In this document: positions 31,165 through 43,853 of the stretch, piece by piece | Layout of the letters: every line of letters starts with the position of its first letter | How positions within the stretch are numbered: position 1 is the stretch's first letter | Assembly (NCBI GenBank): GCA_947489585.1 | Contig: CANLEE010000001.1 | Coordinates: forward strand, 364,946-428,945 | Length of the DNA stretch: 64,000 nt | Source: an uncultured Psychroserpens sp. | GTDB lineage: Bacteria; Bacteroidota; Bacteroidia; Flavobacteriales; Flavobacteriaceae | Direction of reading: 5' to 3' | Notes under the pieces: generated by a model | What the model was told of the DNA's origin: nothing | What the model saw: the letters and a program-made list of their open reading frames with translations, nothing else | The model's database searches: none | Made by a program: the position numbers and the translations under genes

Positions 31165-31500
31165 ATGTCAAAAACATATTACGATCCTGCAGACCTTAGA
31201 AAGTTTAGTAAAATCACAGAGTGGAGCGAAGAATTAGGAAATAAATTCTTTGACTACTACGGAAAAGTTTTTGAAGAAGGCGCCCTTACAGCTCGTGAAA
31301 AATCTCTTATTGCATTAGCTGTTGCACATACAGAACAATGTCCTTATTGCATTGATGCTTACACCAAAGATGGTTTACAAAGAGGTGTTACGAAAGAGGA
31401 AATGATGGAAGCCATTCATGTTGGTGCTGCTATAAAAAGCGGAGCCACCCTTGTACATGGTGTTCAGATGATGAATAAAGTGAATAAATTAGACGGTTAA
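31165..31500 (+). CDS. AhpD/CMD-like protein associated with arsenosugar radical SAM genes
   Basis: GALTAREKSLIALAVAH and QCPYCID motifs; immediately upstream of arsS. Confidence 0.88.
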   Translation: MSKTYYDPADLRKFSKITEWSEELGNKFFDYYGKVFEEGALTAREKSLIALAVAHTEQCPYCIDAYTKDGLQRGVTKEEMMEAIHVGAAIKSGATLVHGVQMMNKVNKLDG

Positions 31501-31506
31501 TAGTAG

Positions 31507-32571
31507 ATGGCAAAATTAAAGACCCAATCCTTACAAAAACAAGGAAGTGATTTAGCTCAAAGTAATCGACAACTCGAAATCTTATCTAACGGAATTTTCC
31601 AAAACGGAGAATTACCAACATTTAAGGCTAAAATTTCGGAAACGAGTCAGTTTCCGCTTAAAGCAAAAAAATTAGAAATCCTACAAATCAATGTTGGTTA
31701 TATGTGTAACCAAGTTTGTGAACATTGTCATGTTGATGCTGGTCCAGACCGAAAGGAAATCATGACGCGTGACACCATGAAACAGTGTTTAGAAGTGATT
31801 AAAAATTCTGGTGCGCATACCTTAGATTTAACTGGAGGCGCTCCAGAAATGAACCCTGATTTTAGATGGTTTGTTGAAGAAGCAGCCAAAGTTGGTATCC
31901 GAGATTTTATAGTACGCTCCAACTTAACAATTATTAGAGCCAACAAAAAATATTACGATTTACCTGAATTTTTTAAAAAACATAACGTTCATGTGGTAAG
32001 CTCAATGCCGCATTGGACGAGAGGAAAAACCGATAAGCAACGTGGTGACGGTGTTTTTGATAAATCTATAAAAGCTTTGCAAGAACTCAACGCGGTTGGC
32101 TATGGTATGCCAGATAGTGATTTGCGATTAGACTTAGTGTATAATCCGTCTGGAGCCTTTTTACCTGGAGACCAAATGTCTATGGAAAAAGATTTTAAAA
32201 AGGCATTGATGGAAGATTTCAATATCCAATTCCATAACCTATTTGCTATTACAAACTTACCAATTGCACGTTTTTTAGATTATTTAATCGCTTCTGAAAA
32301 CTATGAAGATTACATGTATCAATTAGTCGATGCATATAATCCTGCTGCAGTTGCCAATGTCATGTGTACAAATACGCTTTCGATTAGTTGGGATGGTTAT
32401 TTATTTGATTGTGATTTTAATCAGATGCTAGAACTACCTGTAAATAGTAAAGCCAAGCATATTTCAGAATTTAACGAAGAATTATTAGAAGGACGTAATA
32501 TCGTCATATCTCAACATTGCTATGGTTGCACAGCTGGTGCAGGAAGTAGTTGTCAAGGTGTTGTTGCTTAA
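31507..32571 (+). CDS. arsS: Arsenosugar biosynthesis radical SAM enzyme (Cys form, not a selenoprotein)
   Basis: CNQVCEHC, LTGGAPE, VRSNLT, LVYNP, CDFNQML, HCYGCTAGAGSSCQG; the last Cys is encoded by TGT. Confidence 0.9.
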   Translation: MAKLKTQSLQKQGSDLAQSNRQLEILSNGIFQNGELPTFKAKISETSQFPLKAKKLEILQINVGYMCNQVCEHCHVDAGPDRKEIMTRDTMKQCLEVIKNSGAHTLDLTGGAPEMNPDFRWFVEEAAKVGIRDFIVRSNLTIIRANKKYYDLPEFFKKHNVHVVSSMPHWTRGKTDKQRGDGVFDKSIKALQELNAVGYGMPDSDLRLDLVYNPSGAFLPGDQMSMEKDFKKALMEDFNIQFHNLFAITNLPIARFLDYLIASENYEDYMYQLVDAYNPAAVANVMCTNTLSISWDGYLFDCDFNQMLELPVNSKAKHISEFNEELLEGRNIVISQHCYGCTAGAGSSCQGVVA

Positions 32572-32574
32572 CAT

Positions 32575-33252
32575 ATGAATAACAAAACAGCCATATTAAT
32601 TTTTGCAAACTCTGCTAAATTTGAAGCGATTCAAAAACCGTTTCAATCTTCAGAGATTCTGTTTGATGTATTAAATACACGAATCATAGAAATTGCAAAA
32701 CAAACGGGCTTACCCTATTTTTTATCTTCGGAAAAAAACCAAACTGGAGCAACATTTGGCGAACGCTTTACAAATGCTATCCAATCTATTTACGACAAAG
32801 GTTTTGAAAGTGTTATTACTATTGGAAATGATACACCACATTTAGAAACAAATCATATATTAAAAGCGGTTAACCAATTGCAGAAAAATGATATTGTCTT
32901 AGGACCTTCTAAAGATGGCGGATTCTATTTAATGGGATTAAAAGCCTCCCATTTTAATACTGAAACGTTCTCTAAATTGCCTTGGCAAACCTCTCGTTTA
33001 CATCGAAGTATTTCAAGGTTAGTAGTAGCAAAACGTAGTACTTTGTCTTATCTCGAAACACTTTCAGATATTGATATTCTTTCAGATGTAAAAACTATTA
33101 TTGATAGTTTCCGATATCTTTCAAAACACATAAAACAATTACTACAGCATTATATTTCAGTAGAAAAAAAGATCTATAAGACGTCTACACATCTTATTCA
33201 TCTATTGCCTTCAAATTTCTATTTCAATAAAGGCTCTCCTTCTTTATTTTAA
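32575..33252 (+). CDS. DUF2064 family protein, divergent paralog
   Basis: FGERFTNA, IGNDTP, LGPSKDGGFYLMG; lacks the N-terminal P-x-G-x-x-KTRL motif seen in the 34873 paralog. Confidence 0.8.
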   Translation: MNNKTAILIFANSAKFEAIQKPFQSSEILFDVLNTRIIEIAKQTGLPYFLSSEKNQTGATFGERFTNAIQSIYDKGFESVITIGNDTPHLETNHILKAVNQLQKNDIVLGPSKDGGFYLMGLKASHFNTETFSKLPWQTSRLHRSISRLVVAKRSTLSYLETLSDIDILSDVKTIIDSFRYLSKHIKQLLQHYISVEKKIYKTSTHLIHLLPSNFYFNKGSPSLF

Positions 33253-33281
33253 AAGATTTTCCAATTACATTTTAAATAGTG

Positions 33282-33302
33282 TGTCTTCAACAGTTGAAGA
33301 CA
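33282..33302. other. Intergenic hairpin between DUF2064 and arsM
   Basis: TGTCTTCAA-CAG-TTGAAGACA 9-bp stem; no T-tract follows on the + strand. Confidence 0.45.
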
Positions 33303-33365
33303 ACAAAAAACAATTACAAATACATTTAGGTTTTTGGCCTATTACAAAATAAATCCACACAAATT

Positions 33366-34334
33366 ATGAGTTATTTAGAAACCACACATGATGTCTATAA
33401 AGAAGCAGCTTTAACACCAGATGTTGGGTTATGTTGCACTACAAACCCTATTTGGGAATTACCAGGATTAAAAATTCCAAAAATTATGCAAGAAATGAAT
33501 TACGGCTGTGGAAGCACTGTACATGCTAGAGACCTGTCTAACAGTCCTAAAATGTTATATGTTGGTGTTGGAGGCGGTATGGAACTGTTGCAGTTTGCGT
33601 ATTTCAACCGTCAGAAAAGCGGTGTTATTGGTGTAGATATCGTTGATGAAATGTTAGAAGCTTCGAAGCAAAACTTTAAAATTGCTGAAGAGCAAAACAG
33701 TTGGTTTAAAAGCGAATTTGTTGAACTTAAAAAAGGAGATGCAATGCACCTGCCTGTTGAAGACAATAGTATAGACGTTGCTGCACAAAATTGTTTGTTC
33801 AATATTTTTAAGGCAGATGATTTAAAGAAAGCTATTGAAGAAATGTACCGCGTTTTGAAACCCCATGGTCGTTTAGTCATGAGTGATCCAACTTGCGAAC
33901 AATCGATGAATGACGAACTACGTAATGATGAACGTTTAAGAGCATTATGTCTAAGTGGTAGTCTTCCTATAGCTGAGTATGTAAAAGCATTAACAGATGT
34001 AGGTTTTGGTACCATAGAAATTAGAGCTCGTAAGCCTTATAGAATTTTAGATCCTAAAAATTATCCTACTGACGAATTAATCTATATCGAATCTATTGAA
34101 GTTGCTGCCATAAAAGACCCAATGCCTGAGGATGGCCCTTGTGTTTTTACTGGAAAAGCAGCAATTTACTATGGTGAAGAGGATTATTTTGATGATAAAG
34201 CTGGTCATATCTTATTAAAAAACCAACCATTAGCAATCTGTGATAAAACTGCTGGAGCACTAAAAGCTTTAGGTAGAGATGACATCTATTTTAGCGAGTC
34301 AACATTTCATTATGATGGTGGCGGTTGTTGCTAA
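33366..34334 (+). CDS. arsM: Arsenite S-adenosylmethionine methyltransferase (arsenosugar type)
   Basis: GLCCTT, NYGCG, VGVGGG SAM motif, QNCLFN, CLSGS, C-terminal GGGCC; linked to arsS. Confidence 0.85.
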   Translation: MSYLETTHDVYKEAALTPDVGLCCTTNPIWELPGLKIPKIMQEMNYGCGSTVHARDLSNSPKMLYVGVGGGMELLQFAYFNRQKSGVIGVDIVDEMLEASKQNFKIAEEQNSWFKSEFVELKKGDAMHLPVEDNSIDVAAQNCLFNIFKADDLKKAIEEMYRVLKPHGRLVMSDPTCEQSMNDELRNDERLRALCLSGSLPIAEYVKALTDVGFGTIEIRARKPYRILDPKNYPTDELIYIESIEVAAIKDPMPEDGPCVFTGKAAIYYGEEDYFDDKAGHILLKNQPLAICDKTAGALKALGRDDIYFSESTFHYDGGGCC

Positions 34335-34372
34335 ATAAGAGATCCTTTTAATTTATAAGATTGCTCCACTTT

Positions 34373-34873
34373 ATGAAAAAACTATTCGTTTTAATATGTG
34401 CTTTTATATCATTTTCAGTTCAATCGCAAGAATCTCTTGAGGATCTACTGAACCTATACAACAAAAATAATGTGCCATATATTTCGGTTCAGGAGCTAGC
34501 AAAAAGTAAAACTATTGTTTTAGATGCTAGAGAACGAGATGAATTTGAGGTAAGTCACCTTAAAGAGGCAATCTATGTTGGATACACTAATTTTAAATTA
34601 GAGACCGTAGAAAAGCTTATTTCAAATAAAGATGAGCAGATTGTTGTTTATTGCACATTAGGAGTTCGATCTGAAATCATAGCTAATAGATTAAAATTAG
34701 CGGGTTACACAAATGTGAGAAATCTCTTTGGTGGTATTTTTGAATGGAAGAATAACGATTTTAATGTTTATAATTTGAACGAAAAAACGACAGATAGTGT
34801 TCACATATGTTCTAGTATGTGGAGTAAATGGTTAAAAAAAGGTCAAAAAGCCTATCCTAAAGTTCAAAACTAA
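34373..34873 (+). CDS. Secreted rhodanese-like domain protein
   Basis: Signal peptide, LDARE, VVYCTLGVRSE, NLFGGIFEW; ATG at 34373. Confidence 0.85.
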   Translation: MKKLFVLICAFISFSVQSQESLEDLLNLYNKNNVPYISVQELAKSKTIVLDARERDEFEVSHLKEAIYVGYTNFKLETVEKLISNKDEQIVVYCTLGVRSEIIANRLKLAGYTNVRNLFGGIFEWKNNDFNVYNLNEKTTDSVHICSSMWSKWLKKGQKAYPKVQN

Positions 34874-35484
34874 TGACGAAAAACGCCTTAATGGTATTTA
34901 CCAGGAATCCTGAATTAGGAAAGTGCAAAACGCGTTTAGCAAAAACTTTAGGCGACCAATCTGCTTTAGACATTTATAAATATTTGCTTCAACATACCGC
35001 TAATGTTGCTAAAAACGTAGAAGCTAGTCGTTATGTGTTTTATTCTGAAAGTATTAATAATAGTGATATTTGGGAGCATGCATATTTCAGTAAAAAACTA
35101 CAAACAGGAAATAATCTTGGTGAACGCATGCATAATGCATTTCAAGAATTATTTGATTTAGGTTATCAAAAAGTAATAATTATAGGAAGTGACTTGTTAG
35201 ATTTAAATGAAACCATTATTGAGCAAGCGTTACAAAAATTAGAACACCATGATGTTGTCATAGGACCTGCCGAAGATGGAGGTTATTACCTTCTAGGAAC
35301 TAAAGCACTACACCCTAAAATATTTCAAAATAAAGCTTGGGGAACCGAAACTGTAAGGCATGATACTTTAAACGATTTACAAAATAGTAATGTATATGTA
35401 TTGAAAGAATTGAATGATATTGATACTTTTGATGATATGAAACATTACAATCAACTCAAACCATTTTATAAAGCACATGATTAA
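34873..35484 (+). CDS. TIGR04282/DUF2064 transferase (CofC/MobA-like fold)
   Basis: FTRNPELGKCKTRLA, QTGNNLGERM, IGSD, GPAEDGGYYLLG, DIDTFDD. Confidence 0.88.
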   Translation: MTKNALMVFTRNPELGKCKTRLAKTLGDQSALDIYKYLLQHTANVAKNVEASRYVFYSESINNSDIWEHAYFSKKLQTGNNLGERMHNAFQELFDLGYQKVIIIGSDLLDLNETIIEQALQKLEHHDVVIGPAEDGGYYLLGTKALHPKIFQNKAWGTETVRHDTLNDLQNSNVYVLKELNDIDTFDDMKHYNQLKPFYKAHD

Positions 35485-36289
35485 ATTTATAACAGAGACT
35501 GCAGAATATTTACAATCTAAAGGTTTCGATAATCCAGAAATAGGCATCATTCTAGGTACAGGGCTAGGACAGTTAACTAATGAAATAGAAGTTATTCAAG
35601 AAGTAAGCTACAACCATATACCAAACTTCCCAACAGCAACTGTAGAATTTCATAAAGGAAAACTGATTTACGGAATCTTAGGTGGAAAAAAAGTGATTGT
35701 CATGCAAGGACGATTTCATATTTATGAAGGTTACACGCTCCAAGATGTCACCTATCCTGTTCGTGTTATGGAAAAATTAGGCATTAAAACATTACTAGTT
35801 TCTAATGCTTCTGGAGCTATAAACCTCAATTTCAAAAAAGGGGAATTAATGTTAATCGATGACCATATTAATCTTCAAGGAAGTTCGCCTTTAGCTTTTA
35901 AAGGTGTTGAAGCTTTGGGTGAGCGTTTTACTGACATGAGTGCGCCTTATGATCTCGACATTAACGCTAAGTTTAAAACAATTGCCAAAACTCATAACAT
36001 CAAATTACATGAAGGGGTTTATGCAAGTGTTGTTGGCCCGCAATTAGAAACAAGAGCAGAATATAGAATGTTAAAAATCATTGGTGCAGATGCCGTTGGC
36101 ATGAGTACGGTTCCAGAGATTATTGTTGCCAATCACTTAAGCATCAAAACAGCAGCCATATCTGTATTGACTGATGAATGTGATCCAGATAACTTAAAAC
36201 CAGTAAATATTAATGAAATCATAGCAATGGCTGGAAAAGCCGAACCACATATGATTACTTTATTTACCGAGTTAATAAGAGGTTTATAA
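35477..36289 (+). CDS. punA: Purine nucleoside phosphorylase (trimeric PunA/MTAP family)
   Basis: IILGTGLG, QGRFHIYEG, SNASG, DHIN, GPQLETRAEY, AVGMSTVPE, VLTDE. Confidence 0.92.
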   Translation: MIKFITETAEYLQSKGFDNPEIGIILGTGLGQLTNEIEVIQEVSYNHIPNFPTATVEFHKGKLIYGILGGKKVIVMQGRFHIYEGYTLQDVTYPVRVMEKLGIKTLLVSNASGAINLNFKKGELMLIDDHINLQGSSPLAFKGVEALGERFTDMSAPYDLDINAKFKTIAKTHNIKLHEGVYASVVGPQLETRAEYRMLKIIGADAVGMSTVPEIIVANHLSIKTAAISVLTDECDPDNLKPVNINEIIAMAGKAEPHMITLFTELIRGL

Positions 36290-36291
36290 CT

Positions 36292-36322
36292 AAAAAAGGG
36301 CTTTAAAATAAAGCCCTTTTTT
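36292..36322. terminator. Bidirectional terminator between PNP and DUF4097 genes
   Basis: AAAAAAGGGCTTT / AAAGCCCTTTTTT 13-bp inverted repeat between convergent genes. Confidence 0.85.
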
Positions 36323-36340
36323 AACTAACACTCATAATTG

Positions 36341-37036
36341 TTACCCTTTCCTTATATAAATATTTCCTGAAATAGTTTCCATATCTAAAGGAAGTGTTCC
36401 GCCATTAACCTGTTTTGATACTTTATTATGTGAATTGTTATAATGTTTACTAGAGTTATTGTTTTCAAATTCTAGATCTGAATAAATTGTTCCTGTCAGT
36501 GATTTTGCTTTAAGTTTTGCTTTCTTAACAGTAACATCAAGCGATCCGCTAATAGTTTTTAAACGTAATTCTCCATTATACTTTTTAATCGTCACATCAC
36601 CCGAAATTAAATCGGTAACCAAATCACCTTCAAAAGTATCCATAAACACACTACCAGAAATACTTTTTACTTTAAGGTTAATATTTTTAGGTACAATCAC
36701 AACATAATTAATATCTGTATCGCTATTGCAATTATGTCTATTTTTATCCTTCCATTTATTCTTGAAATAGTCTCCAAAATCAGAATAAAATTTCAATTGT
36801 CCTGAACTATTATCTGCTTTTATACTAAATGCTTCATTACCTTCACCATCATCAATATTCACTGATGCTTTTACTATAATTTGATTTGTATTTCCATGCT
36901 CTACTTTGATATCTTGAGCAAATTTAAAATTAAGGTATACATCTTGATTCTTTGAGATACTTTCTTTGACCTCAACATTTCGCTGCGCTTGAAGTGTAGC
37001 AACACTAAGCAAGGCTATTATGACTATTTTTTTCAT
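36341..37036 (-). CDS. DUF4097 (beta-strand repeat) secreted protein
   Basis: Signal peptide; repeated KSISGSV, DLISGDV, KTISGSL, ETISGNIYIRK. Confidence 0.8.
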   Translation of the reverse strand: MKKIVIIALLSVATLQAQRNVEVKESISKNQDVYLNFKFAQDIKVEHGNTNQIIVKASVNIDDGEGNEAFSIKADNSSGQLKFYSDFGDYFKNKWKDKNRHNCNSDTDINYVVIVPKNINLKVKSISGSVFMDTFEGDLVTDLISGDVTIKKYNGELRLKTISGSLDVTVKKAKLKAKSLTGTIYSDLEFENNNSSKHYNNSHNKVSKQVNGGTLPLDMETISGNIYIRKG

Positions 37037-37061
37037 TTGACTGTTTGTTTTTTTGGATTAC

Positions 37062-37892
37062 TTATTTTTTTCTGAGATATACATTTCCTGTAGACGATCG
37101 TAAAACAATTTTCACACCTCCATTGTTGAGCTGGGTTTCAATTTTACGAGTTGAACCTACCACTTTCATACCATCTTTCGAAGGTTTTTGAAGGTCGAAA
37201 TCGGTATAAATCGTTCCCATTGTTGAACGTAACTCTAAGTTGGCTTTCGTATTTGAAGGTAAGGACACATCAACAATACCTGTTGAACTACTCAAAGTGA
37301 TTGGTGACGATTGATTAACACTAGAAAAATCAACTTCAATAGTTCCTGTACTTGTATGAGCTGTAATTGGGCCTGTTACATTCTTAAGAGTAATATTACC
37401 AACATTAGTATTAACTTCTATTTCCGAAGAAAACCCAACAACTATTGCTGTTCCTAAATTACCAGAATCAATGTGAAGATCCATCGTTTTAGGAAGTGTA
37501 ATTTGTAGTCCATTACGTTGCATCCATGATTTCAAATCTTTGATTCGCAGCACACTTCCTTCTTGACTGATTGACATTCCAAATCCTGTATTATCTACTC
37601 CACCAGAGTACACAGCTTTCAATCCTTTAGCTCTATCATTATCGTTATCACAGTCATAACATTCTGCATCATGTTCATGATCACAATTTTCATGATTATG
37701 ATCTAACTCATCATGTTCATATTTACTAAATTTCAGTTCGTTGCCAGTTCCGGCAATTATCTTAACAGTAGTCCCTGTTTCAATTTGAACTTTGGTAATA
37801 CCATTTAAACTCTTAGTATAATCTTCTTGAGCGTATGTAAATACAACACTTAAAAAAGCAATAAGGTTCAATATAATTCCTGTTCGTTTCAT
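37062..37892 (-). CDS. DUF4097 secreted protein with His/Cys/Asp-rich segment
   Basis: Signal peptide; TNVGNI, TSTGTI, SSTGIV, STMGTI, SSTGNVYLRK repeats; HDELDHNHENCDHEHDAECYDCD segment. Confidence 0.8.
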   Translation of the reverse strand: MKRTGIILNLIAFLSVVFTYAQEDYTKSLNGITKVQIETGTTVKIIAGTGNELKFSKYEHDELDHNHENCDHEHDAECYDCDNDNDRAKGLKAVYSGGVDNTGFGMSISQEGSVLRIKDLKSWMQRNGLQITLPKTMDLHIDSGNLGTAIVVGFSSEIEVNTNVGNITLKNVTGPITAHTSTGTIEVDFSSVNQSSPITLSSSTGIVDVSLPSNTKANLELRSTMGTIYTDFDLQKPSKDGMKVVGSTRKIETQLNNGGVKIVLRSSTGNVYLRKK

Positions 37893-37919
37893 TTTTGTTT
37901 GATTTTATAGTTTTTCTAA

Positions 37920-38711
37920 TTAAATAATTTGCGAAATACCACTGTTTACTTGCTCTTTTATAAAGTCTGGCGTATCCGAATGCTCTAATAATTGTTGCAT
38001 AGGAGCAATCGCGCGTTTCTCCTGGATGTTTACCAAAAATTGAATAATTGCAATTTGCAAACTTGGGTCTTTCTGGGTAGTTAGGGCTTCAATGAACGCC
38101 TCTTTCACAATAGCTGATTCTGGAAATTCTGATAATGCTTCTGCTGCAGCTAGTCGCACATTAATATTTCCGTCGTATTGCATACGCTCAATTAAAGCTT
38201 CTAATATTTTGACGTCTGGTTTCACAAAACTTTCTGTAAAACTTACGGCTTGAATTCGTTTACTTGGTGATTGGTTTTCAATCATTGCCAACATCATTCC
38301 TTCTCTTAACTCAATCGTTTCTTTTTGTAATGCTGAAATTTCTTGGTTTGTATCTTGTCTTGTTGTATGACTTCCAAAAAAATAACCAGCAAACACAAAT
38401 ACAATTGACGCGGCTACTTGAAATGCATACTTCCATGGAAATTCTTTGCTCTCTTTTGGAAGTTGCACCACCTTAGTGTCTAATAATTGCTTTTCTTCCT
38501 CAAGAAGTTTATAAAACCCTTCTCTTAGCTTATCACTTGGTGTTACTTCTTCAACATTTTTAAATGCAGAAAAAAGTAAGTTTGTTTCATCATAAAGTAC
38601 TTTACAATCATCACATGTTTCAATGTGTTGTTCAACTTGTTTCGCTTCTTCAGAAGCTAATTGTCTGTCAATGTAATCTACGATGTGCTGTTCTATGTTT
38701 TTACAATCCAT
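37920..38711 (-). CDS. Anti-sigma factor (zinc-binding ZAS motif, one TM helix, HEAT repeat)
   Basis: N-terminal H-x3-C-x2-C (HIETCDDC), central TM, NINVRLAAAEAL HEAT motif; directly downstream of an ECF sigma. Confidence 0.85.
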   Translation of the reverse strand: MDCKNIEQHIVDYIDRQLASEEAKQVEQHIETCDDCKVLYDETNLLFSAFKNVEEVTPSDKLREGFYKLLEEEKQLLDTKVVQLPKESKEFPWKYAFQVAASIVFVFAGYFFGSHTTRQDTNQEISALQKETIELREGMMLAMIENQSPSKRIQAVSFTESFVKPDVKILEALIERMQYDGNINVRLAAAEALSEFPESAIVKEAFIEALTTQKDPSLQIAIIQFLVNIQEKRAIAPMQQLLEHSDTPDFIKEQVNSGISQII

Positions 38712-38713
38712 GA

Positions 38714-39244
38714 TTATATGGTTTCGAAATAAACTGTTTTTAATTTTTTTATGATACGATGCACTTTCACCTTTACTGCGCCTTCACTACTTCCAACTAT
38801 CTCAGCGAGTTTATCGTATTTTATACCTTGAAATCTATTTAAGATTATCAATTCTTTTTCTTCTTTATTTAAGATCTTTAATACTTGATGCAAATGAGCT
38901 ACATTATCATTTTTCTCAATTTTACTTTCTTCATTTTTTTGAGCTACTAACTCTAAATCTGCATTATTTATAGTTTTTTTTGATTTCTGATAATGATCTG
39001 AAAACACATTTCTTGCAATCTTAAAAATCCATGATACGAATTGCCCGCCTTTATATGATGTTCTGTAACGCATGACCTTATAAAATACGGTTTGTGTCAT
39101 ATCTTCACAGACATCTTTATCTCGTATCATTTGAAAATAAAAGTTAAACAATCGTTTATTATAGCGCTCAAAAATATGAGCCATAGCATCCAAATTTCCT
39201 CGAGATACATCGAGCATTAATTCTTCGTCTGTTAGTGTTTTCAA
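38714..39244 (-). CDS. ECF RNA polymerase sigma factor
   Basis: DMTQTVFYKV and FVSWIFKIARN (region 2); YDKLAEIVGSSEGAVKVKVHR (region 4). Confidence 0.93.
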   Translation of the reverse strand: MKTLTDEELMLDVSRGNLDAMAHIFERYNKRLFNFYFQMIRDKDVCEDMTQTVFYKVMRYRTSYKGGQFVSWIFKIARNVFSDHYQKSKKTINNADLELVAQKNEESKIEKNDNVAHLHQVLKILNKEEKELIILNRFQGIKYDKLAEIVGSSEGAVKVKVHRIIKKLKTVYFETI

Positions 39245-39270
39245 TTCTTTTTGATGGTTGTTTGGTATGA

Positions 39271-39297
39271 AGACCTTTAATTTACAAAAAGGTTACA
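39271..39297 (-). promoter_or_regulatory. Candidate autoregulatory ECF promoter TGTAACC-N16-GTCT
   Basis: Minus strand reads TGTAACC tttttgtaaattaaag GTCT, ending 26 nt before the sigma start; typical ECF -35/-10 pattern. Confidence 0.6.
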
Positions 39298-39383
39298 TGA
39301 GAGAATAAAAAAATTACATTTTAATTCAAAGGACGTCGTAAGTACTTGTCTATAAATTCGTCAAAATCATAATAAACTGCCTT

Positions 39384-40496
39384 ATGATTTTAATCTTGTT
39401 ATTTATTTCTGCCTGCTTCTTAGCCTACAGTAATGGTGCTAATGATAATTTTAAAGGGGTTGCTACACTCTTCGGAAGTGGAACAACTAATTACAAAAAA
39501 GCGATAAACTGGGCTACTGTCACCACGTTTTCTGGATCTGTAGCTGCTATTTTTTTAGCTAACGAGTTAGTAAAAAACTTTTCTGGAAAAGGATTAGTTC
39601 CAAATGAACTTATCACTATGCCTATTTTTGCAATATCAATTGCATTCGGTGCCGCTTTAACTGTATTTATAGCAACAAAAATAGGAATGCCAATTTCAAC
39701 AACGCATAGTTTAGTTGGTGCGCTTTTTGGAGCAGGAGTTATGGCTGTTGGCTCGCAATTTAATTTTGAAAAATTGGGAGGCACCTTTTTAATGCCTTTA
39801 ATAGTGAGCCCTTTAATGGCTGCTGCGGCTAGCTTTATAGCCTATCTCATCTTTAGGTTTTTTAGAAAACGATTAGGTGTTACAAAAAAAACAAATCTTA
39901 CTATTCACGAAAAGCAAACAGAAACAATTGCTTCGTTTAGCATGGATAATGCAACATTAAAAACTAAAAAAACAATAGAAGCCACCATTCAAAATAAAAC
40001 GGAAACTTATGATGGTCAAATTTTAGGCTTAAACTCTCAAAAGGTTTTAGATAGTCTACATTACTTAAGTGCAGGCATTGTAAGTTTCGCTCGTGGTTTA
40101 AACGATACGCCAAAAATTGTTGGGCTATTATTAATAATTAATACCATTGATATTAAATGGAGTATGATTATTATAGCAATTGTTATGGCTATTGGAGGAT
40201 TGCTTAATGCTAAAAAAGTTGGCATAACCATGAGTAAGAAAATCACACCTATGAATTCTGGCCAAGGGTTTACAGCCAATATGATTACTGGTTTATTAGT
40301 AACTACAGCAAGTGTACATGGTTTACCTGTTTCTACTACACATGTCTCAGTTGGTTCAATTTTTGGGATTGGCACTGTTACAAAAAAAGCCGATTACAAA
40401 ATGATTGGCAAAATATTATTATCTTGGTTGCTAACACTTCCAATGGCTGCTATTGTGAGTGGCTTATTATTTAAATTATTAGAAACCCTTTCTTAA
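39384..40496 (+). CDS. PiT-family inorganic phosphate/anion transporter
   Basis: GANDNFKGVATL, GMPISTTHSLVG, RGLNDTPK, GLPVSTTH. Confidence 0.88.
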   Translation: MILILLFISACFLAYSNGANDNFKGVATLFGSGTTNYKKAINWATVTTFSGSVAAIFLANELVKNFSGKGLVPNELITMPIFAISIAFGAALTVFIATKIGMPISTTHSLVGALFGAGVMAVGSQFNFEKLGGTFLMPLIVSPLMAAAASFIAYLIFRFFRKRLGVTKKTNLTIHEKQTETIASFSMDNATLKTKKTIEATIQNKTETYDGQILGLNSQKVLDSLHYLSAGIVSFARGLNDTPKIVGLLLIINTIDIKWSMIIIAIVMAIGGLLNAKKVGITMSKKITPMNSGQGFTANMITGLLVTTASVHGLPVSTTHVSVGSIFGIGTVTKKADYKMIGKILLSWLLTLPMAAIVSGLLFKLLETLS

Positions 40497-40505
40497 TTAC
40501 AGTCT

Positions 40506-41393
40506 ATCGAAAAGTATATTGACATTATAAAAAACTCCTATTCTGGTTATTGGAATTATTTGAAAAATGAGATTTTATTTCAGAATAATTGGGATAATTA
40601 TTTTTATGGTCTTATTGTTATATCATTACTAGTTTGGCTCCTTGAAATTGCATTTCCTTGGCGAAAAAACCAAGCCTTATTTAGAAAAGATTTTTGGTTG
40701 GACACCTTTTATATGTTCTTCAATTTTTTTCTTCTGAATTTAATTATACTTATCGCTTTATCTAATACTGCAGCAGCTTTTTTTAATGATGTCTTAGGGC
40801 TTGTTGGTTTGTCAGTTTCTAAATTACAATTGTTTGATGCTAATGATTTACCCAAATGGTTCGGACTTATAGTTTTCTTTTTAGTCAGTGATTTTGTCCA
40901 GTGGAACACGCATCGTTTATTACATCGCGTGTCTTGGCTTTGGAATTTCCATAAAGTACATCATAGTGTCAAAGAGATGGGATTTGCTGCTCATTTACGT
41001 TACCATTGGATGGAGCCAGTCGTTTACAAATCATTATTATATATTCCTTTAGCTTTAATTGCAAATTATAGTGCCCAAGATGTTGCTATTGTCTATTTCT
41101 TTGCGATTGCCATTGGTCATCTTAATCATGCCAACTTGGGCTGGGATTACGGTCTTTTAAAATATGTATTTAATAATCCTAAGATGCATATTTGGCATCA
41201 TGCAAAAGAACTTCCAAAACATGTTAGGTTTGGGGTTAACTACGGACTAACCTTAAGTATTTGGGATTATATCTTTAAAACAGATTATGTTCCGCATAGC
41301 GGAAGAGACATAGAACTAGGTTTTGAAGGTGATGAACAGTTCCCAAAAGATTTTTTACAACAAGAGTTATATCCACTGAAAACCAAAAGTTAG
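40506..41393 (+). CDS. Sterol desaturase / fatty acid hydroxylase family membrane protein
   Basis: His boxes HRLLH, HKVHH, HLNH, HIWHH. The frame is open back to ATC at 40506 (IEKYIDIIKNSYSGYWNY); first near-cognate start is TTG 40560, so the start is uncertain. Confidence 0.85.
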   Translation: MEKYIDIIKNSYSGYWNYLKNEILFQNNWDNYFYGLIVISLLVWLLEIAFPWRKNQALFRKDFWLDTFYMFFNFFLLNLIILIALSNTAAAFFNDVLGLVGLSVSKLQLFDANDLPKWFGLIVFFLVSDFVQWNTHRLLHRVSWLWNFHKVHHSVKEMGFAAHLRYHWMEPVVYKSLLYIPLALIANYSAQDVAIVYFFAIAIGHLNHANLGWDYGLLKYVFNNPKMHIWHHAKELPKHVRFGVNYGLTLSIWDYIFKTDYVPHSGRDIELGFEGDEQFPKDFLQQELYPLKTKS

Positions 41394-41434
41394 ACATTGT
41401 CGTAAGTGTATATAACAAATATAACCTCATAACT

Positions 41435-42334
41435 ATGAACTACTTAAAATATATGTTATCCTTATGGTTATCCATAAGCCTCATTAGTTGTGGCGCATCA
41501 AAGACTGCAACAACCAGTGACAAGACAGTAATGGTCGAGCCAACAACTGAAACAGTAACAGAAGTTGAAATTGTTGAAGAAGTCCAAGAAACTGAAACTC
41601 CAGAGGTTATTGCAGCTTCTGAAACTGCTGAATCAACTGTAGTCGAAATAGAACATATTACGACTCCAAATGATAATGTGGTGAGAGCCAGAATAAATCA
41701 TTCTGCTTGGGACGAATTACTTCAAAAGCATGTATCAGATCAAGGTAATGTAAGTTACAAGGGGTTCAAGGCAGATAAAACGAAGTTTTATGAGTACCTC
41801 AGTGTACTTTCTGAAATCCCACCTCAAGACTCTTGGAGTAAGGATGAAACTTTAGCCTATTGGATGAATGTTTACAATGCATTTACGATAAAACTTATTT
41901 TAGATAATTACCCAACAAAAAGTATAAAAGATATTAATGGACCGTGGAACCATCGTTTTATTAAGATAGGTGAAAAATGGTATACACTTAATGATGTTGA
42001 GCATAGAATCATTAGAAAAATGGATGAGCCTAGAATTCACTTTGCGCTTGTATGTGCTGCAGTATCTTGTCCTCGTCTATATAACAAAGCCTTTACAGAA
42101 CAAACCTTAGAAGCAGATCTAGATCTATTGACCAGAGGTTTTTTAAGTGACACTTCAAAAAATGAATTAAGCGAAAACAGCATCAAGCTTTCTAAGCTAT
42201 TTAAATGGTATGGTGGTGATTTTAAAAACGATGGTAAAACCCTTATTGATTTTTTAAATCAGTATTCTGAAGTTACAATTTCACCTAAAGCAAAAAAAAG
42301 TTACAAAGACTATAACTGGAGTTTGAATGACTAA
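41435..42334 (+). CDS. DUF547 lipoprotein
   Basis: Lipobox LISC, T/E/V-rich linker, LAYWMNVYNA, TLNDVEH, RIHFALVCAAVSCP, YNWSLN. Confidence 0.87.
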   Translation: MNYLKYMLSLWLSISLISCGASKTATTSDKTVMVEPTTETVTEVEIVEEVQETETPEVIAASETAESTVVEIEHITTPNDNVVRARINHSAWDELLQKHVSDQGNVSYKGFKADKTKFYEYLSVLSEIPPQDSWSKDETLAYWMNVYNAFTIKLILDNYPTKSIKDINGPWNHRFIKIGEKWYTLNDVEHRIIRKMDEPRIHFALVCAAVSCPRLYNKAFTEQTLEADLDLLTRGFLSDTSKNELSENSIKLSKLFKWYGGDFKNDGKTLIDFLNQYSEVTISPKAKKSYKDYNWSLND

Positions 42335-43115
42335 AATTTCTATTATAATCCCAATTCTAAATGAAGCTAAAACTATTGAAAAACTCCTTTTTCATCTTAT
42401 AGGCAATGCTTCTATAGAGACTATTTCAGAAATCATAGTCGTTGATGGTGGAAGTACTGATGGGTCGCAACATATTATAAAGAAATTCGTCTCTCCGAAT
42501 GTTCCTAAGGAAAATACCGAGACGTATCGAGAAATTAACACAGCTGTTCTTGACAAAAAGCGTTTAAAAGCAAATGCTTCTCGAACTGAAGTTAAACTCA
42601 TTACTTCTGAAAAAGGCCGAGCCAAACAAATGAATCTTGGTTCAAAATCTGCAAAGGGATCTATTTTATATTTCTTACATGCCGATTCTTTTCCTCCTGA
42701 AGGTTTTGATGAGTTGATTATTTCCGAAGTGAACAAAGGCAATCAAGCGGGCTGTTTCAGACTAAAATTTGACAGTAATCATTGGTGGTTACGCTTAGCA
42801 AGTTGGCTTACACAATTTCGCTGGAGAGCCTGTCGTGGTGGTGATCAGAGTCAGTTTATTACCCGAGAATTATTTGACGATATTGATGGATACGACGAAA
42901 GCTTTATCATCTACGAAGACAACATTTTAATTAATGAGCTTTATGCTAGAAATCAATTTGTAGTTATCAATAAAAAGATAAATACCTCGGCACGTCTTTA
43001 TCATAAACATGGTGTTTGGAAATTACAATATCATTTTTGGACCATCTATGTCAAAAAGTGGTTTGGGGCTTCTGCTGATGATTTATATGCGTATTATAAA
43101 AAGTATATTTGTTGA
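42327..43115 (+). CDS. TIGR04283 family GT2 glycosyltransferase (arsenosugar-associated)
   Basis: SIIIPILNE, VVDGGSTD, GRAKQMN, YFLHADS, GGDQSQF, IYED, TSARLY; internal insertion of about 30 aa. Confidence 0.88.
   Translation: MTKISIIIPILNEAKTIEKLLFHLIGNASIETISEIIVVDGGSTDGSQHIIKKFVSPNVPKENTETYREINTAVLDKKRLKANASRTEVKLITSEKGRAKQMNLGSKSAKGSILYFLHADSFPPEGFDELIISEVNKGNQAGCFRLKFDSNHWWLRLASWLTQFRWRACRGGDQSQFITRELFDDIDGYDESFIIYEDNILINELYARNQFVVINKKINTSARLYHKHGVWKLQYHFWTIYVKKWFGASADDLYAYYKKYIC
42488..42590. repeat. Degenerate REP-like element inserted in frame in the GT2 gene
   Basis: CGTCTC...GAGACG inverted pair (42488-42524) enclosing TTCC-TAA-GGAA, then GTATCGAGAA and TTCTCGAACTGA; shares TCGAGA/TCTCGA cores with the 27212 REP. 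Confidence 0.45.
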
Positions 43116-43853
43116 TTAAGGCTTATTTCGTCCAAGCTCATCTGGATACAAATCTTGCAATCTATCACTTTGAAACACCTGTTTAGTGTCCAAGTCTACA
43201 GCAGATAACTTGCCTGTAAACGCAGCTCCTGTATCAACATTCCATACATTAACAGCATTCATTGGGACATCTTTATAAAAATTAATAGTTGGTGTATGAC
43301 CAATATAAATTTCTGAGTAATGTTTTAATCGATGTGGGTACAATTCCGAATCTTTTTGAATACGACTGTCCATGGTCAAAGCCATTTCCCAAAGTGTTCT
43401 ATCAAAATAAAAATTCCTAAAATTATATTCACGTTCTACACCATGCATTGAGGTAAAACCAGCGTGAATAAACAATCTATTTTCGTTATCAATATGATAG
43501 AGTTGCATATCATCAAAAAAATAAAGGTGTTGTTTTTTATCAGCTTCCGAAAATCCTTCATAACTCTCAACCGTTTCTTGCCCACCATGAGCTAACCAAA
43601 CCGGTTCTCCTTGACCAGTTCGCAACCAATCTTCACACCATACATCATGGTTTCCTTTAATAAATATACATTCATTAGTTTTTGATAACTCTATGAGATA
43701 CTGAATGACTTGAGCAGACTCACTCCAACCATCAACATAGTCTCCAACAAAGATAAGAATGTCGTTATGGGAGACTTTTGCACGTTCAAAAAGTTGGATT
43801 AAGCCTCTTAAGCCTCCATGAATATCACCGATTACTAGTGTTCGCATAAACAT
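43116..43853 (-). CDS. Metallophosphoesterase (calcineurin-like)
   Basis: IGDIHG, GDYVDG, GNHD, FIHAG, IGHTP, VDTG. Confidence 0.9.
   Translation of the reverse strand: MFMRTLVIGDIHGGLRGLIQLFERAKVSHNDILIFVGDYVDGWSESAQVIQYLIELSKTNECIFIKGNHDVWCEDWLRTGQGEPVWLAHGGQETVESYEGFSEADKKQHLYFFDDMQLYHIDNENRLFIHAGFTSMHGVEREYNFRNFYFDRTLWEMALTMDSRIQKDSELYPHRLKHYSEIYIGHTPTINFYKDVPMNAVNVWNVDTGAAFTGKLSAVDLDTKQVFQSDRLQDLYPDELGRNKP

Follow-up and report, generated by a model that had tools for sequence, protein, structure and literature searches.

A 64,000-nucleotide stretch of the genome of an uncultured Psychroserpens sp. (GenBank assembly GCA_947489585.1, contig CANLEE010000001.1, forward-strand positions 364,946 to 428,945; the window, whose own numbering is used throughout) carries a gene cluster of the arsenosugar type. 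It encodes an arsenite methyltransferase, ArsM, and the radical S-adenosylmethionine (SAM) enzyme ArsS, together with a purine nucleoside phosphorylase (PNP) and members of the TIGR04282 and TIGR04283 families. On the basis of sequence, the last three are good candidate enzymes for the late steps of arsenosugar synthesis. Seaweeds contain arsenic chiefly as arsenosugars, which raise food-safety concerns, and to our knowledge the removal of adenine and the attachment of the aglycone, both proposed decades ago, are still without enzymes. A literature search likewise found no enzyme assigned to the steps after ArsM and ArsS, no mention of PNP, DUF2064 or TIGR0428x proteins in arsenosugar synthesis, no description of the three-step route considered below, and no report of arsenosugars from Bacteroidota.

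Gene content of the cluster

Family membership was judged by comparing the bit score of each NCBIfam hidden Markov model (HMM) with the family's own cut-off, and Pfam domains were scanned besides. Open reading frame calls and above-cut-off scores place all five genes, each on the plus strand, where a first-pass annotation made from the sequence alone had put them: ArsS at 31507-32571 (TIGR04167, 442.3 bits against 300), the arsenosugar-type ArsM at 33366-34334 (NF038099, 573.5 against 400), the predicted nucleotidyltransferase TIGR04282 (DUF2064) at 34873-35484 (222.1 against 134, over model positions 1-189), a trimeric-type PNP of the Asp/Ile subtype described below at 35477-36289 (NF006054, 339 against 218), and TIGR04283, a family-2 glycosyltransferase (GT2), at 42327-43115 (224.5 against 182). 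Also on the plus strand are a TIGR04169 AhpD/CMD-like CxxC protein, annotated as arsenosugar biosynthesis-associated and peroxidase-like, at 31165-31500 (192.5 against 120), and an exported rhodanese-domain protein at 34361-34873 (NF045521, 'rhoda_near_glyco', 189.2 against 145). The overlaps said to couple PNP with the rhodanese and TIGR04282 genes are indeed present, with the TIGR04282 start sharing one base with the rhodanese stop (TAATG, 1 nt) and TIGR04282 and PNP overlapping by 8 nt (ATGATTAA). The cluster forms two plus-strand blocks, split by a minus-strand cassette at 36341-39244, and is not a single operon.

Every family of the NCBIfam arsenosugar set, which is anchored on Synechocystis ArsM-ArsS, is found here above its cut-off (TIGR04167, NF038099, TIGR04169, TIGR04282, TIGR04283 and NF045521), and the gene order matches that of dozens of Flavobacteriaceae loci. 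The locus is an ordinary member of a widespread and already named cluster type, of which it is the Bacteroidota form. The closest relatives of the TIGR04282 protein bear names that likewise point to Psychroserpens or its neighbourhood. Experimental support within the set exists for ArsM and ArsS only. The set does not include PNP, nor the fatty-acid-hydroxylase-family, DUF547 and PHO4 proteins described below, all of which are conserved members in Bacteroidota.

ArsM methylates As(III), as established outside this organism, and the ArsM of the window has cysteines in CC, YGCGS, QNCLFN and ALCLSG contexts, presumably the counterparts of the cysteines that bind As(III) in ArsM enzymes already characterised. 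In ArsS, both the Radical_SAM domain (PF04055) and the C-terminal Cys-rich DUF3641 domain (PF12345) are matched, and the CX3CX2C motif reads C67-N-Q-V-C71-E-H-C74. The product of Synechocystis ArsS is 5'-deoxy-5'-dimethylarsinoyl-adenosine (DDMAA), formed by adenosylation of dimethylarsenite (PMC13598754), and ArsS is credited with the pathway's first committed step (bioRxiv 10.1101/2022.09.23.509062, with reference to Xue et al. 2019). The TIGR04169 protein contains a CPYC motif, and in most related loci its gene immediately precedes that of ArsS.

Subtype and 5' pocket of the phosphorylase

The first-pass annotation had drawn attention to an Asp in PNP where 6-oxopurine-specific enzymes have Asn, and had taken it as consistent with acceptance of adenosine analogs, with the caveat that this Asp may be common in Bacteroidota. 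The codon concerned (GAT, 36173-36175) does encode Asp, namely Asp233 within VLTDE, which aligns with Asn243 of human PNP. We aligned PNP with sequences from 17 further genomes of the order, from which two subtypes emerge. Asp was found in all 17 of the further trimeric PNPs, including 11 of the His type described next, all of these from ArsS-less genomes. The caveat thus holds for the order and the proposed meaning of Asp233 does not, and the residue was rejected as a specificity marker because all of the order's sampled trimeric PNPs have it. The equivalent of Phe200, which is Leu here, was similarly rejected, as Leu is also present in approximately half of the His-type PNPs.

The two subtypes differ at the position of human His257, which we take to contact the nucleoside 5'-OH. 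Ordinary PNPs of the order read TDLG...(S/T)HEE and keep this His. The PNP of the window reads TDECDPDNLKPVNINEII and has Ile245 (codon 36209-36211) at the same position, so that the Asn243 and His257 equivalents of the 6-oxopurine-specific type are replaced by Asp233 and Ile245. The equivalence of Ile245 and His257 is seen through the NHEEV motif in alignments to PDB entries 8SWU and 8SWT. As far as alignments can tell, the residue at the His257 position is a better marker than the Asp. Ile, Leu or Val occupies it in 87/87 of the Asp-type sequences with a hydrophobic residue there, and in all 50 of the PNPs embedded in clusters. The phosphate-site equivalents R84, H86 and S220 are invariant across the same 87 sequences, which suggests that Ile-type PNPs are still phosphorylases. 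A maximum-likelihood tree places 82 sequences, including all 50 linked PNPs, in one clade (support 100/96) apart from the His-type clade.

By HMM score PNP also exceeds TIGR01697 (295 bits against 197) and, barely, TIGR01700 (294.9 against 293.35). It does not belong to the family of 5'-methylthioadenosine (MTA) phosphorylase, MTAP (TIGR01694, 87.2 bits against 274.85), and has TDECDPD in place of the TDYDCW motif. An alignment anchored on human MTAP (1CB0) and on an MTAP homologue from a metagenomic contig (L152, see below) pairs PNP Asp233 with MTAP D220, Cys235 with C223, and Ile245/Ile248/Ile249 with V233/V236/L237, the last of which presumably line the 5'-methylthio pocket. Ile245 is thus equivalent both to His257 of human PNP and to Val233 of MTAP. 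The likeness between the two enzymes extends over the trimeric superfamily, the base-site Asp, the hydrophobic patch and, for the substrate proposed below, a 5'-deoxy-5'-substituted adenosine, while by sequence PNP belongs to the PNP-I family. As the HMM says non-MTAP and the pocket residues match MTAP, PNP looks like a PNP-I member with an MTAP-like 5' pocket. Such a pocket would fit a 5'-deoxy-5'-substituted adenosine such as DDMAA, and MTA or 5'-deoxyadenosine would suit it just as well. Among solved structures, the closest (PDB 4LNA and 4M1E, E-values of 6e-89 and 9e-75) share the Asp and Leu variant and have a related TDLC(F/L)PD motif; their deposited name is simply 'purine nucleoside phosphorylase'.

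TIGR04282 and TIGR04283

An AlphaFold2 model of TIGR04282 (mean predicted local distance difference test score, pLDDT, 95.5) was compared with the PDB using Foldseek. The nearest entry is the uncharacterised 3CGX, with a template modelling (TM) score of 0.87. The nearest structures of named function are FbiD/CofC and 3-phosphoglycerate guanylyltransferase (TM 0.69-0.75), followed by IspD and KdsB, and GT-A glycosyltransferases reach a TM of only approximately 0.5. TIGR04282, which the first-pass annotation called CofC/MobA-like, resembles CofC/FbiD in fold and not in sequence family (TIGR03552, 47.5 bits against 105). Since the fold is nearest to nucleotidyltransferases, the name 'glycosyltransferase' given to TIGR04282 in the NCBIfam set is doubtful. 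Residues K19, R21, L22 and D107 and the DGGYY motif are invariant in TIGR04282. Characterised nucleotidyltransferase neighbours join a nucleoside monophosphate to a phosphate or hydroxyl group, and the same chemistry makes a nucleoside diphosphate (NDP)-sugar from a sugar-1-phosphate. The CofC/FbiD enzymes and 3-phospho-D-glycerate guanylyltransferases (6BWH, 2I5E, 7P97) transfer guanosine monophosphate onto a phosphate monoester, the chemistry needed for an NDP-sugar. They act on other substrates, however, the likeness is at the level of the fold only, and there are no F420 genes in the cluster.

The GT2 motifs of TIGR04283 are intact (DGGS-D, KGRA-Q-N, YFLHAD, RGGDQS and YED). Its HMM match is in two stretches, separated by an insertion of approximately 30 residues (42488-42590) in a variable-length loop just after DGGSTD, and insertions of similar size occur at the same place in several relatives (G005, L029, L033 and L050).

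On a metagenomic contig (L109) outside the Bacteroidota-type clusters, a 463-residue protein encoded directly downstream of an ArsS equivalog (L109:2400-3791) fuses TIGR04283 to TIGR04282 (240 bits against 182 and 179 against 134, respectively). With a threshold of E<=1e-20, at least 1665 proteins match the fusion. Of the 120 best, nearly all have a GT2 as well as a DUF2064 domain, and their sources include Planctomycetota, Thermodesulfobacteriota, Omnitrophica and Proteobacteria. That the two families are so widely fused is good evidence that TIGR04282 and TIGR04283 act together. Stand-alone GT2-DUF2064 fusions with no ArsS within 8 kb are also seen (L121:8001-10103 and L119:8001-9317), among them a 700-residue GT2-DUF2064-GT2 form, and as these fusions stand without ArsS the two families may have roles outside arsenic chemistry. 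In the control genome of Synechococcus elongatus, ArsS, TIGR04282 and TIGR04283 are accompanied by a PF01048 member outside both PNP-I and MtnN.

Linkage and distribution

Species-representative genomes were searched with an alignment of only this PNP subtype, which returned 80 loci. PNP lies inside an ArsS/TIGR04282 cluster in 50 of these, and the arrangement is therefore far beyond chance. The 50 linked loci span Flavobacteriaceae, Chitinophagaceae, Fulvivirgaceae, Thermonemataceae and Catalimonadaceae, and the adjacency of TIGR04282 and PNP is found across Flavobacteriales, Chitinophagales and Cytophagales. The usual order in Flavobacteriaceae is CMD>ArsS>Rhod>TIGR04282>PNP>ArsM>hydroxylase>DUF547>TIGR04283 (Rhod denoting the rhodanese gene), and that in Chitinophagaceae and Fulvivirgaceae is CMD>ArsS>PNP>TIGR04282>TIGR04283. 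Stop and start codons overlap in 24 of the 43 same-strand TIGR04282/PNP pairs, in either gene order. The occurrence of both orders indicates that the pair stays together through rearrangement. In representatives of other ArsS-containing families (G048, G051 and G053), TIGR04282 and PNP are adjacent even where ArsS is on another contig.

ArsS was found in 35/36 other genomes of the genus and in 3/17 of the other families sampled in the order. Trimeric PNPs are far more widespread (15/21 genera). At the level of families, the Ile-type PNP is present in 4/4 ArsS-positive and 2/14 ArsS-negative cases (Fisher p=0.0049 over 18 families, uncorrected for phylogeny).

Proposed route and alternatives

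We propose that DDMAA would be made by ArsM and then ArsS, both steps having been shown in other organisms. PNP would then use phosphate to cleave DDMAA to adenine and 5-deoxy-5-dimethylarsinoyl-alpha-D-ribose-1-phosphate, the 5'-substituted substrate being suited to the hydrophobic, MTAP-like Ile-x-x-Ile-Ile patch that replaces His257. TIGR04282, translationally coupled to PNP, would join a nucleoside monophosphate to this sugar-1-phosphate to yield an NDP-sugar, from which TIGR04283 would transfer the sugar to an acceptor, possibly a lipid, to give a beta-riboside. A phosphorylase converts a beta-nucleoside to an alpha-sugar-1-phosphate, nucleotidyl transfer keeps the configuration, and an inverting GT2 enzyme yields the beta product. 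The stereochemistry is thus consistent with the route, as the sequence of beta-nucleoside, alpha-sugar-1-phosphate and inverting GT2 would give the natural beta-riboside. Indeed, natural arsenosugars are named as beta-ribofuranosides in the title of PMC6656958. This three-step scheme is plausible as the simplest reading of the coupling, the fusions, the remodelled 5' pocket and the stereochemistry, and we place the likelihood that it applies in full slightly short of even.

A more general form, which we hold only tentatively and consider rather unlikely as a whole, is that the phosphorylase-TIGR04282 pair constitutes a previously undescribed nucleoside-to-NDP-pentose route, by which SAM-derived 5'-substituted adenosines would be turned into NDP-5-deoxy-5-X-ribofuranose donors. 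In marine Flavobacteriia, an arsenosugar lipid or envelope conjugate would then be assembled by the GT2 enzyme together with the hydroxylase-like membrane enzyme and the exported rhodanese and DUF547 proteins. A precedent is said to exist in mycobacterial capping with 5-methylthio-xylofuranose, where work by Angala and colleagues from 2017 reportedly describes an MTA-derived pentose that serves as glycosyl donor for a GT2-type enzyme encoded near an MTA phosphorylase gene. That pathway reportedly uses a polyprenyl-phosphate carrier, and concerns sulphur instead of arsenic, another sugar and another phylum.

Several observations weigh against the three-step route. No PF01048 gene was found within 8-10 kb in 12 ArsS or GT2-DUF2064 contexts outside the Bacteroidota-type clusters, where the recurring core comprises CMD, ArsS, GT2, DUF2064, a VTT/DedA protein, a pyridine-nucleotide disulfide oxidoreductase, rhodanese and DUF547. 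When metagenomes were scanned with a varied set of ArsS sequences, 35 ArsS loci were found to hold TIGR04282. An adjacent Ile-type PNP is present in 15 of these, all low in G+C, and the other 20 have no adjacent phosphorylase, some of the contigs being short. The core of such clusters thus does not include a dedicated phosphorylase. The sampled ArsS fusion proteins never include a phosphorylase, TIGR04282 or TIGR04283. Within Bacteroidota, the Ile-type PNP tracks organismal phylogeny, is retained after loss of the cluster in Formosa sp. A9 and Mangrovimonas, and stands alone in 21 genomes of which 13 have no ArsS. Parts of the cluster also occur without ArsS. A member of the same genus (G005) still has Rhod-TIGR04282-PNP-hydroxylase-DUF547-TIGR04283, Psychroflexus halocasei has TIGR04282-PNP, and G047, which lacks both ArsS and TIGR04283, has a TIGR04282-PNP-DUF547 operon (L114:8955-11160) with a 4-nt overlap. 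Conversely, G048 has ArsS, ArsM and TIGR04282-PNP, yet no TIGR04283. The back-end module may thus not depend strictly on ArsS, and the phosphorylase step is a linked cluster feature only in Bacteroidota. One MTAP homologue from elsewhere was set aside: on a high-GC (0.57) contig, a gene convergent to CMD-ArsS and cut by the contig end (L152:14810-15412) encodes an MTAP with the TDYDCW motif (E-value of 2e-41 to human MTAP), and as a single contig at a distance of 4.4 kb from ArsS it is too weak to count as a linked phosphorylase.

These observations bear most directly on the possibility that PNP is a housekeeping phosphorylase of adenosine, MTA or 5'-deoxyadenosine that owes its place in the cluster to ancestry or to the salvage of by-products such as adenine or the 5'-deoxyadenosine from abortive ArsS turnover. 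TIGR04282 and TIGR04283 would in that case carry out the late chemistry without a PNP-derived sugar-1-phosphate, as in the phyla without a linked phosphorylase. Besides the missing phosphorylase in the sampled non-Bacteroidota clusters and the many ArsS-less genomes that have or have kept the Ile-type subtype, the genome itself speaks for such a role: PNP is its only trimeric PNP, the other PF01048 members being DeoD and a Udp-like protein, and a search of the genome found no MtnN and no MTAP. In a comparison for complementary distribution of MtnN and the Ile-type PNP, MtnN occurred in just 5 of 61 relatives, and many genomes with a His-type PNP only were likewise without it. As the sole trimeric PNP of a genome without MtnN or MTAP, and of a subtype that persists without ArsS, PNP is probably also a general adenosine, MTA or 5'-deoxyadenosine phosphorylase. 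PNP could, however, serve in housekeeping and in the pathway alike, and it is TIGR04282, not ArsS, beside which PNP stays through rearrangements, in both orders and with overlapping codons. In addition, G047 carries a second PNP elsewhere, of the ordinary His type, besides its TIGR04282-coupled Ile-type enzyme, and the family-level co-occurrence with ArsS given above (again uncorrected for phylogeny) also argues against housekeeping alone. We consider a purely housekeeping PNP unlikely, if by no means negligible.

Less probable again is that TIGR04282-PNP-DUF547, either alone or joined by TIGR04283, forms a module in its own right that activates the pentose of another 5'-substituted adenosine (such as MTA, 5'-deoxyadenosine or an imported arsenic nucleoside), and which ArsS feeds only facultatively. 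The ArsS-less modules of G005, G047 and Psychroflexus halocasei, the presence of TIGR04282 without ArsS in two further genomes (G078 and G079) and the lone GT2-DUF2064 fusions (L119 and L121) would all be explained. Most instances nevertheless adjoin ArsS and ArsM, and the few ArsS-less cases could reflect partial loss in the recent past, given that all but one of the genus relatives have ArsS.

Arsenolysis by PNP is known chemistry, and an in vitro 'arsenate reductase' activity was once ascribed to mammalian PNP. A scheme in which PNP would form ribose-1-arsenate, to be reduced by thiols to arsenite and so to supply As(III) to ArsM, could draw on a PHO4-type transporter able to import arsenate, on the thiol-redox proteins of the cluster and on the listing of PNP among candidate genes in work on human arsenic metabolism (for example PMC1257606), but is highly improbable, as it leaves both the coupling to TIGR04282 and the exchange of His for Ile in the 5' pocket without explanation, and as ArsR and an ArsN1-ArsC fusion are encoded at a separate ars locus on contig C5.

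Returning to the route from DDMAA by way of PNP, TIGR04282 and TIGR04283, the locus and its relatives supply three expressible candidate enzymes and a stereochemically consistent scheme, by which the question of the late steps becomes directly testable. G047, with both PNP subtypes, is a natural paired control for substrate preference. As nearly all species sampled from the genus, and many Flavobacteriaceae, have the cluster, heterotrophic marine bacteria may be makers of arsenosugars or of arsenosugar lipids. If so, abundant heterotrophic bacteria would be sources of marine arsenosugars and arsenolipids besides algae and cyanobacteria.

Accessory genes and surroundings

Three plus-strand genes sit between PNP and TIGR04283, and all three recur in related clusters. 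The first encodes a PHO4/Pit-family phosphate transporter (39384-40496; PF01384, 229 bits), which is found in the related clusters L028, L038, L044, L151, L154, L161 and L198 and possibly also takes up arsenate. The second (40560-41393) encodes a membrane di-iron enzyme of the fatty-acid-hydroxylase superfamily (PF04116, 93 bits) with His-box motifs, a conserved cluster member in many Flavobacteriaceae. It fails the OlsE model (NF052566, 86.7 bits against 475), and its assignment is to the PF04116 superfamily only. The third (41435-42334) encodes a DUF547 lipoprotein (PF04784, 92 bits) with the lipobox LISC; signal peptides are present in nearly all orthologues, and C207, S211, C212 and P213, which form a C-x4-C-P motif, are invariant. 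An AlphaFold2 model of the DUF547 protein (domain pLDDT of approximately 97) found no structural neighbour in the PDB, the best E-value being 0.29, and there was no PDB sequence match. The DUF547 family also occurs near ArsS clusters in other phyla (a metagenomic lineage, L108, and a planctomycete, L118).

In the rhodanese protein, a segment resembling a signal peptide at the N-terminus is accompanied by a C-X4-R loop (YCTLGVRS; C98-TLGV-R). Both recur in nearly all of approximately 28 orthologues, in which the loop is conserved as YCSxGxRS. As the rhodanese and DUF547 proteins have export or lipoprotein peptides and the hydroxylase-like protein is an integral membrane protein, part of the last steps may be membrane-bound or periplasmic, and the acceptor may accordingly be a lipid or envelope component.

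Directly after ArsS, a divergent TIGR04282-like (DUF2064) paralogue is encoded on the plus strand (32575-33252; 104 bits, under the cut-off of 134). It matches TIGR04282 model positions 73-188 only and is missing the N-terminal K-T-R-L motif, but retains GERF, IGNDTP and DGGFYLMG. Paralogues of this type are found in a subset of relatives (L030, L039, L041, L043, L056 and G051), and the protein may be regulatory or degenerate. ArsS itself is seen fused to ArsM (in both orders), to CMD/AhpD, to a flavin reductase and to VTT/DedA (P0144, P0160, P0164, P0163 and P0238), with P0164 the sole representative protein that fuses an ArsS domain to a CMD domain. Several long forms of ArsS carry N-terminal extensions of 200-400 residues without a Pfam match.

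The separate ars locus on contig C5 (L117:133-1920) encodes an ArsR-type regulator, a 169-residue protein without a family match and a 308-residue fusion of an ArsN1-like N-acetyltransferase with a low-molecular-weight-phosphatase-type ArsC domain.

Scans for promoters and terminators, and for the Bacteroidota -33/-7 pattern, performed no better at the locus than on shuffled sequence. The minus-strand cassette that splits the cluster is 2.9 kb long and encodes an extracytoplasmic function (ECF) sigma factor, an anti-sigma factor of the zf-HC2/HEAT type and two DUF4097/LiaG-like proteins. PNP and TIGR04283 are not equally far apart across the genus, with approximately 3.9 kb between them in G010 compared with 6.8 kb here, which suggests that the cassette was inserted in some lineages. 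The planctomycete ArsS cluster (L118) is likewise flanked by an ECF sigma and zf-HC2 pair. At the far end, a calcineurin-like metallophosphoesterase is encoded on the minus strand (43116-43853; PF00149, 67 bits), convergent to TIGR04283, and is likewise found beside TIGR04283 in G005, L030-L033, L037, L177 and L186.

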